A stretch of DNA of 64,000 bases from Escherichia coli (lineage in GTDB: Bacteria; Pseudomonadota; Gammaproteobacteria; Enterobacterales; Enterobacteriaceae). The position numbers and the translations under genes were made by a program. Below the pieces are notes generated by a model. That model ran no database searches and was not told where the DNA came from. It saw only the letters and a program-made list of their open reading frames with translations. Location of the stretch: NCBI RefSeq assembly GCF_030384885.1, contig NZ_CP128613.1. One strand, written 5' to 3'. Shown piece after piece: positions 2,772 to 50,651 of this stretch (within the stretch, counting starts at the first letter, position 1; every line of letters begins with the position of its first letter).

Positions 2772-3707
2772 ATGTCGCAAAATCAAGAAATTAGTAAGAA
2801 AGAACAATACAATCTGAACAAATTACAAAAACGTCTGCGTCGTAACGTGGGCGAAGCCATTGCTGACTTCAATATGATTGAAGAAGGCGATCGCATCATG
2901 GTTTGCCTCTCCGGGGGTAAAGACAGCTATACCATGCTGGAGATTCTGCGCAATTTGCAGCAAAGCGCGCCAATCAATTTTTCGCTGGTGGCTGTTAACC
3001 TCGATCAAAAGCAACCGGGCTTCCCGGAACACGTTCTGCCCGAGTATCTTGAAAAGCTGGGCATTGAGTACAAGATTGTGGAAGAGAACACTTACGGTAT
3101 CGTGAAAGAGAAGATTCCGGAGGGCAAAACCACTTGCTCACTGTGTTCTCGTCTTCGTCGCGGAATTCTTTACCGTACCGCAACGGAACTGGGAGCGACG
3201 AAGATCGCGCTGGGTCACCATCGTGACGATATCCTGCAAACGTTGTTCTTAAATATGTTCTACGGCGGCAAGATGAAAGGTATGCCTCCGAAACTGATGA
3301 GCGATGATGGCAAACATATTGTGATTCGTCCGCTGGCCTACTGCCGCGAGAAAGATATTCAGCGCTTTGCCGATGCAAAAGCGTTCCCGATTATTCCGTG
3401 CAACCTGTGCGGTTCACAACCTAACCTGCAACGTCAGGTGATTGCTGACATGTTGCGTGACTGGGATAAACGTTATCCGGGGCGTATCGAGACGATGTTC
3501 AGCGCGATGCAGAATGTGGTGCCGTCGCATCTGTGCGATACCAACCTGTTCGATTTCAAAGGCATTACCCACGGTTCTGAAGTGGTTAACGGGGGTGATC
3601 TGGCGTTTGATCGCGAAGAGATCCCTCTACAACCGGCGGGTTGGCAGCCTGAAGAAGATGAAAATCAGTTGGATGAGTTACGACTGAATGTGGTTGAAGT
3701 GAAATAA
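2772..3707 (+). CDS. ttcA: tRNA-cytidine(32) 2-sulfurtransferase TtcA
   Basis: 311 aa; PP-loop motif CLSGGKDS and two CxxC pairs (CSLC, CNLC) typical of TtcA. Confidence 0.92.
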
Positions 3708-15194: not shown

Positions 15195-15947
15195 ATGATC
15201 CCGGAAAAGCGAATTATACGGCGCATTCAGTCTGGCGGTTGTGCTATCCATTGCCAGGATTGCAGCATCAGCCAGCTTTGCATCCCGTTCACACTCAACG
15301 AACATGAGCTTGATCAGCTTGATAATATCATTGAGCGAAAGAAGCCTATTCAGAAAGGCCAGACGCTGTTTAAGGCTGGTGATGAACTTAAATCGCTTTA
15401 TGCCATCCGCTCCGGTACGATTAAAAGTTATACCATCACTGAGCAAGGCGACGAGCAAATCACTGGTTTCCATTTAGCAGGCGACCTGGTGGGATTTGAT
15501 GCCATCGGCAGTGGTCATCACCCAAGCTTCGCGCAGGCGCTGGAAACCTCGATGGTATGTGAAATCCCGTTCGAAACGCTGGACGATTTGTCCGGTAAAA
15601 TGCCGAATCTGCGTCAGCAGATGATGCGTCTGATGAGCGGTGAAATCAAAGGCGATCAGGACATGATCCTGCTGTTGTCGAAGAAAAATGCCGAGGAGCG
15701 TCTGGCTGCATTCATCTACAACCTGTCCCGTCGTTTTGCCCAACGCGGCTTCTCCCCTCGTGAATTCCGCCTGACGATGACTCGTGGCGATATCGGTAAC
15801 TATCTGGGCCTGACGGTAGAAACCATCAGCCGTCTGCTGGGTCGCTTCCAGAAAAGCGGTATGCTGGCAGTCAAAGGTAAATACATCACCATCGAAAATA
15901 ACGATGCGCTGGCCCAGCTTGCTGGTCACACGCGTAACGTTGCCTGA
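15195..15947 (+). CDS. fnr: fumarate/nitrate reduction regulator FNR (CRP/FNR family)
   Basis: 250 aa from the ATG at 15195 ([29 protein letters not shown]); N-terminal Cys cluster and C-terminal HTH. Confidence 0.95.
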
Positions 15948-16098
15948 TTTTTCCGCATCACTCACTATCCTTCTGTCATATCATTAAATTTTTCTGATTT
16001 ATTGATCTGGCAGAAGGTTCATCACTGTTTCATTCACCAGATATGGGTTAATCTTTTAATTACAAACTGCGTTGACAGTTGTTGTAAGGAGACCCTGT

Positions 16099-17049
16099 AT
16101 GGCTATGTATCAGAACATGCTCGTTGTTATCGATCCTAACCAGGACGACCAACCAGCATTGCGGCGAGCTGTTTATTTACATCAACGGATTGGTGGCAAA
16201 ATTAAAGCCTTTTTGCCGATCTATGACTTCTCATACGAAATGACCACCCTGCTCTCCCCGGACGAACGTACCGCTATGCGTCAGGGCGTCATCAGCCAGC
16301 GAACAGCCTGGATCCACGAGCAGGCAAAATATTATCTCAATGCTGGCGTTCCCATTGAAATTAAAGTGGTCTGGCATAACCGTCCATTCGAAGCCATCAT
16401 TCAGGAAGTGATCAGCGGCGGACACGATTTGGTGCTAAAAATGGCGCACCAACATGACCGTCTGGAAGCGGTGATTTTTACGCCAACGGACTGGCATCTG
16501 TTACGCAAATGCCCAAGCCCGGTGTGGATGGTGAAAGACCAGCCGTGGCCGGAAGGGGGTAAGGCGCTGGTGGCGGTGAATCTCGCCAGTGAAGAGCCGT
16601 ACCATAATGCGCTCAATGAAAAACTGGTTAAAGAGACGATCGAACTGGCGGAACAAGTTAATCATACCGAAGTTCATCTGGTTGGCGCTTATCCGGTAAC
16701 GCCAATTAATATCGCGATTGAACTGCCGGAATTTGATCCGAGCGTTTATAACGATGCCATTCGTGGGCAACATTTGCTGGCTATGAAAGCCCTGCGGCAG
16801 AAATTCGGTATTAATGAAAACATGACACACGTTGAAAAAGGTCTACCAGAAGAGGTGATTCCTGATTTGGCGGAGCACTTACAGGCGGGGATTGTGGTTC
16901 TGGGAACGGTCGGACGCACCGGTATTTCAGCAGCATTCCTCGGCAACACGGCGGAACAGGTGATTGATCATCTTCGCTGCGACCTGCTGGTCATTAAACC
17001 TGACCAGTATCAGACCCCCGTTGAACTGGATGACGAAGAAGACGATTAA
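16099..17049 (+). CDS. uspE: universal stress protein E (tandem Usp domains)
   Basis: 316 aa from the ATG at 16099 ([14 protein letters not shown]); two Usp domains. Confidence 0.9.
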
Positions 17050-17098
17050 CGACTCTTCAATAACTGACAAGGCCCGAGTTAACGGGCCTATTTTTTAC

Positions 17099-17356
17099 TT
17101 ACTGCTCTTCGCCGCCAAGGAAATAAATTCCCAACGGGATTGCCAGCAACACAGTAAAGACCAGGCTATAAACAAAAATCATTGATGACTGAATCACATA
17201 CATTGATGTCGTCCACTCAGACAGCGGAATATTGTACTGTTCTATCACGCCGCCGATGGTCGCGCGAGTCACAACCGACGCCGCAATAATGAAAACCGCC
17301 AACAAACCAAAGAGAAATTTCTTCCCTTTCGCTGACTTCAGTTTCGCCATAATCAT
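17099..17356 (-). CDS. ynaJ: small inner-membrane protein YnaJ
   Basis: 85 aa, two predicted TM helices; position between uspE and ynaI. Confidence 0.75.
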   Translation of the reverse strand: MIMAKLKSAKGKKFLFGLLAVFIIAASVVTRATIGGVIEQYNIPLSEWTTSMYVIQSSMIFVYSLVFTVLLAIPLGIYFLGGEEQ

Positions 17357-17599
17357 GATGTAATCCTTGTGCAGACAAATTTCTTGTTACCTAACAGTAA
17401 CAATACCATGACATTTCACCGTTGTCTGCTCTGAAAACCTCACCTCTTAGCTGGATTTACAATCAACGCATTGATTAGTTAGCTAATGTTGCTACTTCCT
17501 TCCCTGACTATTGATGATCTGAATGAATTGTCGCGGTAAAATAGCCCCGCCAGGGGTTTCCGGCATGACGACAATTATCTGGAGGAGCCTGATAAAACA

Positions 17600-18631
17600 A
17601 TGATCGCTGAACTGTTTACAAATAATGCGCTTAATCTGGTCATTATTTTCGGTAGCTGCGCAGCATTGATTCTGATGAGCTTTTGGTTTCGCCGCGGAAA
17701 TCGTAAAAGAAAAGGATTTTTATTCCATGCGGTGCAATTTTTAATCTACACCATAATTATCAGTGCTGTTGGTAGCATCATTAATTATGTTATAGAAAAC
17801 TACAAACTCCAATTTATCACTCCAGGCGTTATCGATTTTATCTGTACGTCCCTGATTGCGGTTATTCTGACGATTAAGTTATTTCTGCTGATTAATCAGT
17901 TTGAAAAACAGCAGATTAAAAAAGGTCGCGATATCACCAGTGCGCGGATTATGTCGCGTATCATCAAAATCACCATTATTGTGGTACTTGTTTTGCTTTA
18001 TGGCGAACATTTCGGTATGAGCCTTTCTGGCTTGTTGACCTTTGGTGGTATTGGTGGTCTGGCTGTCGGTATGGCCGGTAAAGATATTTTGAGTAACTTC
18101 TTTTCCGGGATTATGCTCTATTTCGACCGTCCTTTTAGTATTGGCGACTGGATCCGTTCACCGGACAGAAATATCGAAGGTACAGTAGCGGAAATTGGCT
18201 GGCGAATTACCAAAATTACGACCTTTGATAATCGTCCGTTATACGTCCCGAACTCGCTGTTTTCGTCTATCAGCGTAGAAAACCCGGGGCGAATGACCAA
18301 CCGACGTATTACCACGACAATCGGTTTACGTTATGAGGATGCGGCAAAAGTGGGAGCCATTGTCGAAGCCGTACGTGAGATGCTTAAAAATCACCCAGCC
18401 ATCGACCAGCGACAAACCTTACTGGTTTATTTCAACCAGTTTGCTGACTCGTCATTGAATATTATGGTTTATTGCTTTACCAAAACCACAGTATGGGCTG
18501 AATGGCTTGCCGCCCAGCAGGATGTTTATTTGAAGATTATCGATATTGTACAGTCACACGGCGCGGATTTCGCGTTCCCAAGCCAGACGCTGTATATGGA
18601 TAACATTACACCACCAGACCAGGGTCGTTAA
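17600..18631 (+). CDS. ynaI: MscS-family mechanosensitive channel YnaI
   Basis: 343 aa; N-terminal TM helices followed by an MscS-like beta domain. Confidence 0.88.
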
Positions 18632-20290: not shown

Positions 20291-20472
20291 AAGTTACCCT
20301 CAAACCTGCGTTAATAATCATGCGTAATTATTTGTTTCGCCTTAAAGAAATGCAAACAACTTCCGGCAAAAAAGTGATACAAGATCGATAACATAGCGTT
20401 GAAGAAAAGGATTTGATAATCCGCAAAATTTGCACAACACTGCCTGTAATACTTCCTGAACCAGAGACGATC

Positions 20473-22259: not shown

Positions 22260-22763
22260 ATGTCACAAACCGTTCATTTCCAGGGCAACCCGGTTACAGT
22301 CGCCAATTCCATCCCGCAGGCGGGTAGCAAAGCGCAGACTTTTACTCTCGTGGCAAAAGATCTGTCTGACGTCACCCTCGGTCAGTTTGCGGGTAAACGC
22401 AAAGTGCTGAACATTTTCCCGAGTATTGATACCGGTGTTTGCGCCGCATCAGTACGTAAGTTTAACCAACTGGCAACCGAGATCGACAACACCGTTGTGC
22501 TGTGTATCTCTGCCGATCTGCCGTTCGCCCAGTCTCGTTTCTGCGGCGCAGAAGGTCTGAACAACGTTATCACCCTCTCCACTTTCCGTAACGCTGAATT
22601 CCTGCAAGCCTACGGTGTGGCAATTGCTGATGGCCCACTGAAAGGTCTGGCAGCGCGTGCCGTTGTGGTTATCGATGAAAATGACAATGTGATTTTCAGC
22701 CAGCTGGTTGATGAAATCACCACCGAGCCGGATTACGAAGCAGCTCTGGCTGTACTGCGCTAA
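22260..22763 (+). CDS. tpx: thiol peroxidase Tpx
   Basis: 167 aa; peroxidatic Cys motif (TGVCA) and atypical 2-Cys Prx fold. Confidence 0.93.
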
Positions 22764-22772
22764 ACAACTGTG

Positions 22773-22810
22773 CCGTTCACTGAATCACCACCGGTGAACG
22801 GCAGTTTTTG
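22773..22810 (+). terminator. Rho-independent terminator downstream of tpx
   Basis: Hairpin ccgttcac...gtgaacgg followed by cagtttttg. Confidence 0.65.
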
Positions 22811-22916
22811 ATCTACCAGTCCCATTATTTTCCAGAGTTCCTGCCACTATTCCCCCTAACCGTTGTGCATTAAGATTGCTCTTTGCCATTATTGGCCCAG
22901 CGGAGTGATGACTATT

Positions 22917-24959
22917 ATGGATGATAAACAAATTACGGTCTGGCTTAAACACAATTGCTGTTCAACGGACATTCCTGCCATTGCCGAGGCACTAACGAAC
23001 CATGCAGAATGGCTTTTAGAGCTAGCGCCAGATCCTATTGAACAAGGTTGTTCATGTTTACCGCCGACAGCTGCAGCCGGTATTTTTCTTGGCGCAGCGG
23101 CGATGGTTCACTGCGGCGAGGCTAGTGGTGCAGAAACCTGGCTCGAAGCAGCCATTACTGATTACCATTTCTTTAATCCAAATGGATATAGTTCATGGAG
23201 AGGCAGTACGCCTGTTTTTACAGCATTATCGCGTTACCCGGCATTAAGAATGGTGTTATTTAACGCCGCTTGCGCAATGGAAGACTGGAATAAAGCATCC
23301 GCTGTTCTTGAATCGCTTTTCCATGCCAGCGATGTAACGGAAGATAACCCTGTCGCCCCCAATTTTACCCCTTATGCGCTGAAAGCGTTTATCGCGGATT
23401 ACCACCCGTTAGGGCCTGCTTATTATGATGAAACCTGGTTGCTGGCAAAACAAGCGTGGTTAATTAATGCGGGCGTTCTGGATGAGCGAACCTGTAATAC
23501 CTGGAAGCAATATACCCGCCATTTGCGCCATTTGATCCATAATGCACAGTTTTCCGATGCGATCTCTTTTGTACGCAGTAAAAAAGAACCATTAAATCAT
23601 ATCCATACCTACTCAGACTTTTATCTCTATGCGATTGGTTTATTTTCTTCTACTGATCAGCTAAGTGAAGCGCTAACCTGGGTAAAACAATTAATCCGCA
23701 ACAATGATGGTCATTTCCATGATCTTTTCGTTTCAACTGGCGCAAAGCGCCGAATAAAGCCTGAACTTAGTACCTTGCTGAATAATCTCTTGTACAGCGC
23801 AGAGTTTCAGGCGTTGCAGGATAAATATCTCACCGTCGGACATGATGTTGTGCATTCTGGTCCCTTCATGTCACTTTATGAAAAGGTTCTTGGCGGTAAG
23901 TCCCGAAAGCGCTGCGCGATTAGTCGAAAATTAATCTCACCCGGCGAAGCGGTTTATGAATATCGTCAGCTGGATAGTGTGGAATATATTGCAGCGAAAG
24001 CGGCCTTTCAGACATCTGAGCTAAATAATATCGCCCACCGGCATCATAATGATAGTTATCAGTGGCATGAATTTGCCGTCCAATGGCCTCGTCGGGGTTC
24101 ACTTTCTCACCCAGATATTGCCCGTTATTTGTTTGAGCGCCAGGAAGGAAAATGCTTTGATGCCGCAGAGTTTATACAACTGATTGCGGAACCGTTTGTC
24201 TTTCCGATGCGTTTCATATGGGTTGCCGGGTTGTCCTTTGAATTACATCAGTATCCGGATGCCTATTTCGTAAATGACAATATGGCGGGTGAATTTGTTA
24301 ATCTCTGCTGGATGGCTATGAAATGCGGACATGCTGGCGACATTTTCAAACAACTGGCCCACGAGCCGCATGACGTTGCTGACCCTATTTACGCCATGCT
24401 CGCCACGTTTGACCGCGCTGATTGCCGTAGCGCCGCCGCCGCGCACTTTGGACAACCGGAACTACCGGAAATAATGGCACTGGCTTTCAGTTCGAGGTTA
24501 TCGCTCGACAGCGTCCTTACCATCGCTGAGTTTGGTAAAAATCAGCCGCGATTTTCACATGCGCTAGCAACGGCCCTCCTGCGTTACAACCTGCACATCT
24601 ACTCAAACTATATGCCGCAGGTTAACTGGTACCTTCAGGGGCTGGAACACTATGCTTTGGCAAAAGGCGGTCAACTTTTAAATTTCTTTGTGCATATTCC
24701 AGAACAAATTCCCGTTCTGGCGACCATGCTGGAACATGGCGTATTAGTGCGTGGGATCGGTGAAGGTGCCTATGATGGTTATGATAATTCAGCAAATTCA
24801 TTTCATCATGCCGCCGTGATGCACTGCCTCACGCACGCGCCGGAAAAAGTCCGCTACTGGATGGAAACACCCTGGATTCAGAACTATTTAGTGAATGCGC
24901 CGCTGCGTCAAACGGCGCGCCATGTGGAAGCCTGGCATAAAAAGTTTGGCATCAAATGA
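22917..24959 (+). CDS. hypothetical protein, about 680 aa, no family recognised; probably cytoplasmic, Cys/His-rich N-terminus
   Basis: Single long ORF (table entry 22863..24959, which starts at a TTG); the ATG at 22917 has ggag 11 nt upstream. No signal peptide or TM segment by eye. Sits between convergent tpx and tyrR where recalled K-12 order has no gene. Confidence 0.6.
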   Translation: MDDKQITVWLKHNCCSTDIPAIAEALTNHAEWLLELAPDPIEQGCSCLPPTAAAGIFLGAAAMVHCGEASGAETWLEAAITDYHFFNPNGYSSWRGSTPVFTALSRYPALRMVLFNAACAMEDWNKASAVLESLFHASDVTEDNPVAPNFTPYALKAFIADYHPLGPAYYDETWLLAKQAWLINAGVLDERTCNTWKQYTRHLRHLIHNAQFSDAISFVRSKKEPLNHIHTYSDFYLYAIGLFSSTDQLSEALTWVKQLIRNNDGHFHDLFVSTGAKRRIKPELSTLLNNLLYSAEFQALQDKYLTVGHDVVHSGPFMSLYEKVLGGKSRKRCAISRKLISPGEAVYEYRQLDSVEYIAAKAAFQTSELNNIAHRHHNDSYQWHEFAVQWPRRGSLSHPDIARYLFERQEGKCFDAAEFIQLIAEPFVFPMRFIWVAGLSFELHQYPDAYFVNDNMAGEFVNLCWMAMKCGHAGDIFKQLAHEPHDVADPIYAMLATFDRADCRSAAAAHFGQPELPEIMALAFSSRLSLDSVLTIAEFGKNQPRFSHALATALLRYNLHIYSNYMPQVNWYLQGLEHYALAKGGQLLNFFVHIPEQIPVLATMLEHGVLVRGIGEGAYDGYDNSANSFHHAAVMHCLTHAPEKVRYWMETPWIQNYLVNAPLRQTARHVEAWHKKFGIK

Positions 24960-24996
24960 ACGTTGCCGCTGCGCCTGAACGGCGCAGCCAGCACAA

Positions 24997-26538
24997 TCAC
25001 TCTTCGCTTTTCTTCTGGTTTAAGCCATATTCCCGCAACTTATTGGCAATCGCGGTATGCGAAACGCCGAGACGTTTTGCCAGTTTGCGCGTGCTGGGAT
25101 AATTGCGATAAAGCTGAGTTAATACCGAGCGTTCAAAACGGCTGGTGATTTCGTCCAGCGAACCTTCCATCGCATCTTCGCCCACGGCTACCGTTGCGGC
25201 GTCATAATCCGGTAACAAAATATCCTGTGGACGTAGCTCATAACCGTCCAGTTGTGTCAGTGCGCGATAAATAGCGTTCTTTAACTGCCGCACATTTCCC
25301 GGCCACGCATAACGCGTAAGTACAGTATTCAGGTCAGCGGCCAGTTTCGGACGCGGCACGCCCTGCTCGTCGGCAAAGCGGGCGACGAACAGCTCGGTTA
25401 ACGGCATGATGTCCTGCGGACAGTCACGTAGCGGCGGCAGATTGAGCGTCAACACGTTCAGACGATAATAGAGATCTTCACGGAAAACGCCTTTTTGCAC
25501 CAGTTCGACTAAATTCTTCTGCGTAGCGCAAATAACCCTTACATCGACATGCACTTCATGATCTTCACCAACTCGACGGAAAGTACCATCATTAAGGAAA
25601 CGCAGTAATTTCGCCTGCATCCTTGGCGACATCTCGCCTATCTCATCTAACAGCACCGAACCACCGTTCGCCTGCTCAAAGAACCCTTTTTTACCTTCCG
25701 GAGCATGACCAAACAGTTCACTCTCGACCGCATCTTCCGGTATAGACGCGCAGTTCAGCGCCAGGTAAGGTTTGCCCGCTCGTGGGCTTGCCTGATGGCA
25801 GGCGTAGGCAAAGAGATCTTTACCTGTACCGGTGTCACCCGTAATCAGCAACGGCGCGCTTAGCATCGCCAGTTTCTGCGCCTGTTCGACAACATGCTTC
25901 ATTTTCGGGCTGACGGCGACAATTTGACTGAAGGCACTGACGTCCTGTGCAGCGACATTCTGCAACTGACGGCCCATACGAATCGTCGAGCGCAACATCA
26001 CCACCGCACCGGTCAGAACGTGTTGATCATTTTCATCCTGAAGATAAACAGGCGTAATCTCCATCAGGAAATTCTGCCCATTAATAACGACATGCTCGTT
26101 ATGCGAGTCTTGCGGTTCGCTTTCCAGCCAGCGTAAAAAATTAAAGCCGTTAATTAATTGCGCGGCGGTATGGTTGCGCAGGCGATCCAATTTTTGCCCA
26201 AAAAGCTGACAGCTCGCCGGGTTCGCCATATCCACTTTGCTTTTCATATCAACAGAAAGCACAGGCTCAGGCAACGCCTCCAGTAACGCGCTCAACGCCA
26301 GATGCTCACGTTCGGAAGGCATCCACGGAACAGTGCGCACATCGGTAACACCTGCAATACGGCGTATTTCGGCCATCAGACTGCTGAAACTTTCAAATTC
26401 CAGTTCGGCAAAATTGAGGTAGATTCGCCCAATGGGGTCAATCTCAATACCGCGTAAATCAATGCCTCTTAGCACGAGTAGATCGAGTAATTCGCGGGTC
26501 AGACCGAGTCGGTCTTCACAAAAGACTTCCAGACGCAT
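24997..26538 (-). CDS. tyrR: transcriptional regulator TyrR (sigma54-type AAA+ enhancer-binding family)
   Basis: 513 aa from the ATG at 26538 (MRLEVFCEDRLGLTREL); central AAA+ domain (GDTGTGKD, GAFTGA-like) and C-terminal HTH. Confidence 0.93.
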   Translation of the reverse strand: MRLEVFCEDRLGLTRELLDLLVLRGIDLRGIEIDPIGRIYLNFAELEFESFSSLMAEIRRIAGVTDVRTVPWMPSEREHLALSALLEALPEPVLSVDMKSKVDMANPASCQLFGQKLDRLRNHTAAQLINGFNFLRWLESEPQDSHNEHVVINGQNFLMEITPVYLQDENDQHVLTGAVVMLRSTIRMGRQLQNVAAQDVSAFSQIVAVSPKMKHVVEQAQKLAMLSAPLLITGDTGTGKDLFAYACHQASPRAGKPYLALNCASIPEDAVESELFGHAPEGKKGFFEQANGGSVLLDEIGEMSPRMQAKLLRFLNDGTFRRVGEDHEVHVDVRVICATQKNLVELVQKGVFREDLYYRLNVLTLNLPPLRDCPQDIMPLTELFVARFADEQGVPRPKLAADLNTVLTRYAWPGNVRQLKNAIYRALTQLDGYELRPQDILLPDYDAATVAVGEDAMEGSLDEITSRFERSVLTQLYRNYPSTRKLAKRLGVSHTAIANKLREYGLNQKKSEE

Positions 26539-50502: not shown

Positions 50503-50651
50503 TATGACTCCTGTTTCACGTGTATCAGATATATGCAGTTTGTGAACGTCAGGGCGCAGAGATCCCCGGGCCGCATGCCCGTTTATTTCTGGCGACATTC
50601 TTTATGGATTGCCGGGCGCATTGCGCTTACCCGGCTTACAGAACAAAAAGA

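Follow-up and report, generated by a model that had tools for sequence, protein, structure and literature searches.

The ynaJ-ynaI locus

The window, by which we mean the whole 64-kb stretch of DNA that was analysed, belongs to an Escherichia coli chromosome and runs in reverse orientation relative to K-12 MG1655. Its gene order in this part is abgT-ogt-fnr-uspE-ynaJ / ynaI-mppA, and the following features surround the point at which ynaJ and ynaI diverge:

17099-17356, minus strand: ynaJ, 85 aa, DUF2534 small membrane protein (Pfam E=4.5e-41), the left boundary gene
17357-17599, no strand assigned: divergent intergenic spacer between ynaJ and ynaI, exactly 243 bp, 42% GC, without insertion sequence
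17475-17486, no strand assigned: YTAR cluster, with three sites in direct succession (TTAG-TTAG-CTAA) and a perfect palindrome in its final 8 nt (17479-17486, TTAGCTAA)
17479-17482, minus strand (CTAA; TTAG on the plus strand): unoccupied IS5 target tetranucleotide, the insertion point of IS5F in K-12 and of ISKpn26 in strain Eco_23-3571, and the site of a BLAST segment overlap
17600-18631, plus strand: ynaI, 343 aa with MscS-type channel domains, a low-conductance mechanosensitive channel of the MscS family, the right boundary gene

The target of IS5 is YTAR, and a 4-bp target duplication is expected upon insertion. The target tetranucleotide listed above precedes the ATG of ynaI by 121 bp and that of ynaJ by 126 bp, the latter distance being counted from the duplicated copy in K-12. 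The 40 nt around the YTAR cluster have a GC content of 35%, compared with 51% for the window. The cluster is native sequence: it is identical in the K-12 flanks, in Eco_23-3571 and in the outgroup Escherichia sp.

The spacer itself is plain. It has no ORF of its own of 40 aa or more, and two ORFs that start within ynaJ overrun its edge. Its inverted repeats are limited to four 8-nt pairs, a number at chance level, and none of these is found at the spacer ends. An Rfam scan of 16900-17800 (E<=1) gave no match, and a sigma-70 consensus scan of 17000-17700 detected no promoter-like site, so that the ynaJ and ynaI promoters were not placed by consensus. An imperfect stem-loop on the plus strand (17527-17575; outer arms AATTGTCG and CGACAATT, inner hairpin GCCCCGCCAGGGG) closely precedes the Shine-Dalgarno sequence of ynaI. 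It was considered as an RNA element and rejected, because its stability is not significant against shuffled sequences (MFE -23.6 kcal/mol, z = -1.82; 11 of 200 shuffles fold equally well) and none of the three substitutions in the outgroup Escherichia sp. MOD1-EC7003 is compensatory. On the minus strand, the inner hairpin is also terminator-like by score.

The occupied allele of K-12

The initial annotation had placed a copy of IS5 between ynaI and ynaJ in K-12, and the annotation of NC_000913.3 bears this out: the entry "insertion sequence:IS5F" (1396044-1397238, 1195 bp, with insH4, b1331) is placed between ynaI (b1330) and ynaJ (b1332). The K-12 element is thus not at a different locus but sits in the same ynaI-ynaJ spacer. 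This copy is well documented. The K-12 strain BW25113 has 11 native IS5 loci, ynaI/ynaJ among them; the copy there is 100% identical to wild-type IS5 and has been deleted experimentally (PMC11677980). Another report (PMC2072959) speaks of "the known IS5 element b1331 to the right of ynaI".

The K-12 and window copies of ynaJ and of ynaI are equal in length. The spacer measures 1442 bp in K-12; this is the sum of 243 bp, the 1195 bp of IS5F and the 4 bp of a CTAA target duplication. At the junctions, K-12 reads ...TTAGCTAA / IS5F / CTAACTAATCAATG..., as compared with ...TTAGCTAACTAATCAATG... on the minus strand of the window, and K-12 therefore has one CTAA extra. When IS5F and one CTAA are removed from the K-12 sequence, the two spacers align over 243 versus 243 bp without gaps and are identical at 241 of the 243 positions, the two differences being located at 17395-17396. 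When the window is compared by BLAST with 95 kb of K-12, the alignment is broken at exactly this point in the spacer, and the two segments overlap at 17479-17482. Across the region, the identity between window and K-12 is 94.6-98.1%.

Absence of IS5 from the window

The searches of the window were uniformly negative for IS5. The terminal repeat GGAAGGTGCGAAYAAG (in the IS5 family, 16-bp terminal inverted repeats of the form GGAAGGTGCGAA(C/T)AAG) had no matches across the 64 kb even when 3 mismatches were allowed, and not one 20-mer of the K-12 IS5F is present anywhere in the 64 kb. The spacer (17357-17599) does not contain an ORF for a DDE transposase (insH, about 326-338 aa). A YTAR tetranucleotide is found once at the orthologous position (CTAA, minus strand, 17479-17482), and a 4-bp YTAR duplication flanking an element was not found in the window: it reads AGCTAACTAATC where K-12 reads AGCTAA[IS5F]CTAACTAATC. 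The tandem TTAGTTAG of the window is native sequence, and Escherichia sp. MOD1-EC7003 has the same tandem. The ORF, repeat and 20-mer searches thus agree with the initial description of a plain 243-bp interval that is free of transposase ORFs and terminal inverted repeats, and the lack of an insertion sequence in the ynaJ-ynaI spacer is confirmed.

Distribution of the empty and occupied alleles

The survey covered 5,426 complete genomes of E. coli, and the locus is present in 5,422 of them. In 5,057 of these (93%), a stretch of 120 bp with the target at its centre is uninterrupted. The junction search, which used a 60-nt query and a strict E-value, returned 355 of the 5,422 genomes with the K-12 junction between flank and IS5, plus one partial match; in about 9 genomes, the site is not uninterrupted and an IS5-type junction is lacking as well. 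From the 355 junction-positive genomes, 59 were sampled evenly and checked for strain identity. All 59 were K-12 laboratory derivatives or K-12-like, with genomes of 4.5-4.8 Mb, and they included MG1655, W3110-type strains, DH1, DH5alpha, C600, J53, HB101, XL1-Blue, EMG2, O16:H48, Keio strains and transconjugant recipients.

The one partial match among the 5,426 genomes is the monkey isolate E. coli Eco_23-3571. Its element is of the ISKpn26 type (L002, NZ_CM176496.1, 3031-4226), belongs to the IS5 family, is 1196 bp long and is 91.4% identical to IS5F. It represents an independent insertion.

Close relatives of the window strain, such as 2013C-4282 and 2017-02-2CC, have no IS5 at 17479-17482 and are 100% collinear with it. 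Outside E. coli, Escherichia sp. MOD1-EC7003 has an intact target and an ungapped spacer (96.9% identical) in which TTAGTTAGCTAA is kept; over the flanking 5.4 kb, its identity to the window is about 95%. This outgroup is a single species: an exact 22-mer search through 100,044 genomes, one per species, returned no other, and that search is silent on occupancy in the rest.

Most E. coli genomes and the one outgroup species are thus empty, and in the 59 genomes sampled the occupied state is found in K-12 derivatives only. The 5,057 empty genomes, the empty outgroup and this restriction to K-12 support the view that the empty state is ancestral and the IS5F allele a derived exception of the K-12 lineage. 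The designation of the window sequence as a pre-insertion allele, which had been made from the sequence of the window and background on the K-12 locus, is supported by this distribution together with the collinearity.

History of the site

Precise excision of a former IS5 copy would restore a single CTAA and leave exactly the sequence of the window, and the site has been hit independently at least twice, which means that past occupancy is not impossible. Such a history would require a gain and an exact loss, two events where zero suffice. The occupied allele is seen just in K-12 laboratory derivatives (59 of 355 sampled) and in one unrelated ISKpn26 event, and the window is only 94.6-98% identical to K-12 across the region. 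The empty state in 93% of genomes, in the outgroup species and in the close relatives 2013C-4282 and 2017-02-2CC argues against excision as well, as does the lack of any IS5 sequence in the 64 kb. We consider excision very improbable. On parsimony, it is nearly certain from these sequence comparisons that the spacer is ancestral and uninterrupted, and that the window lineage never received the IS5F insertion.

For the K-12 lineage, the following course of events can be proposed. The IS5 transposase would have made staggered cuts at CTAA, the 1195-bp IS5F would have been inserted, and gap repair would have produced the second CTAA. This would have been a single event in the ancestor of the K-12 laboratory strains. 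Collinearity, the single as opposed to the duplicated target, the distribution in the population and the state of the outgroup are direct observations. We infer two things: the transposition chemistry, a staggered cut followed by gap repair, for which we draw on what is established about IS5 and its YTAR target duplication, and the one-time insertion in the ancestor of the K-12 laboratory strains.

The occurrence of two different elements, IS5F and ISKpn26, at an identical tetranucleotide and with the same CTAA duplication raises the question of whether the IS5 family favours the CTAA at 17479-17482 for landing, given that this tetranucleotide is embedded in a palindromic, AT-rich stretch (TTAGTTAGCTAA) within a divergent promoter region, and whether the empty allele is poised for recurrent insertion. 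The low GC content near the target (35% versus 51% for the window) would fit. However, there are two events only, the observation was made post hoc, and no other IS5-type junction at the site was found among the 5,426 genomes. Moreover, the spacer has five YTAR sites, which gives a chance of about 1 in 5 that an insertion uses the same site once it lands in the spacer. We therefore regard a preferred landing site as a doubtful proposition, and the further statement that the TTAGTTAGCTAA motif (17475-17486) is a recurrent IS5-family hotspot in the divergent control region of ynaJ and ynaI as slightly more doubtful still. If it were true, strains with the empty allele would be prone to IS5-mediated rewiring of ynaI and ynaJ and, with a second copy, to fnr loss.

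The significance of the finding is very small. The empty site itself brings no new biology; it is an already documented strain polymorphism and nothing new. The window does not have a special allele; it shows the widespread ancestral condition, from which K-12 departs. It is the K-12 reference that is atypical at this locus. IS5F (b1331) is a feature of the K-12 laboratory lineage and not of the control region that ynaJ and ynaI normally have in the species. The point is useful to anyone who applies promoter maps of K-12, or its expression data for these two genes, to natural isolates.

Other differences in the window

Close to the spacer, IS200C, an element about 0.7 kb long, is found in at least seven genomes (H34-H40). 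Its insertion point is between uspE and ynaJ (window ~17089-17096), where it directly follows the terminator hairpin of uspE (17070-17089) on the 3' side. These alleles were considered as occupants of the ynaJ-ynaI spacer and rejected, since the element sits on the other side of ynaJ.

Between tpx and tyrR, the window has a segment of 2.2 kb (22758-24998) that is found neither in K-12 nor in Escherichia sp. MOD1-EC7003. It contains an ORF on the plus strand (22863-24959) of 698 aa, which is annotated by RefSeq as "hypothetical protein" WP_106907512.1 in strain 2013C-4282 and has no match in Pfam, NCBIfam or PADLOC. Of the 5,426 complete genomes surveyed, only 32 have the segment, with identities of 90-99.5%; in the 8 genomes listed of these 32, it adjoins tyrR in all 8 and also spans tpx in 7. 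The 698-aa ORF is a rare orphan accessory gene and the most notable side observation of this analysis.

Several K-12 segments have no counterpart in the window. The cryptic prophage Rac (K-12 1411899-1434958) is absent, and its K-12 flanks join at window 2779-2821 with a 43-nt overlap, which is an empty attachment site where ttcA ends. K-12 1390724-1393139 (ymjC, ymjD, ycjY and pgrR) is absent as well, with the result that mppA and mpaA are direct neighbours; at the junction (window 20348-20377), the BLAST segments overlap by 30 nt. Because 2013C-4282 and Escherichia sp. MOD1-EC7003 share the mppA-mpaA arrangement, K-12 may be the inserted state, and the ymjC-ymjD-ycjY-pgrR block may be an insertion in K-12. 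About 120 bp of K-12 between puuR and puuC (1362518-1362639) have no counterpart at window 50603-50605. Across 24999-50605, the identity between window and K-12 is unusually low (94.6%).

Comparison with known systems

The ISKpn26 of Eco_23-3571 uses the same spacer and tetranucleotide as the IS5F of K-12, and its CTAA duplication and junctions are also the same. It differs from IS5F in being another element in the opposite orientation, and it is absent from the window.

In some K-12 stocks, IS5 copies at this locus are involved in the loss of fnr. In a W3110 stock, a second IS5 adjoining ogt recombines with b1331, and ynaJ, uspE and fnr are deleted (PMC2072959). PMC3149613 cites Sawers 2005 (J Bacteriol 187:2609) on the presence, in certain K-12 strains, of IS5 upstream of fnr. 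The same ynaJ-uspE-fnr block occupies about 15200-17356 in the window. The K-12 deletion needs the b1331 IS5 and a second IS5 near ogt/fnr, whereas the window has neither; as it is without any IS5, the route to fnr loss by IS5 recombination is absent from it.

The closest comparison is with IS5F/insH4 of K-12 MG1655, which is found at the orthologous locus. The flanks are the same save for 2 substitutions, and the exact target tetranucleotide is present in the window. Compared with the IS5F allele, both the element of 1195 bp and the second copy of CTAA are missing from the window, which thus represents the unoccupied allele of this locus.
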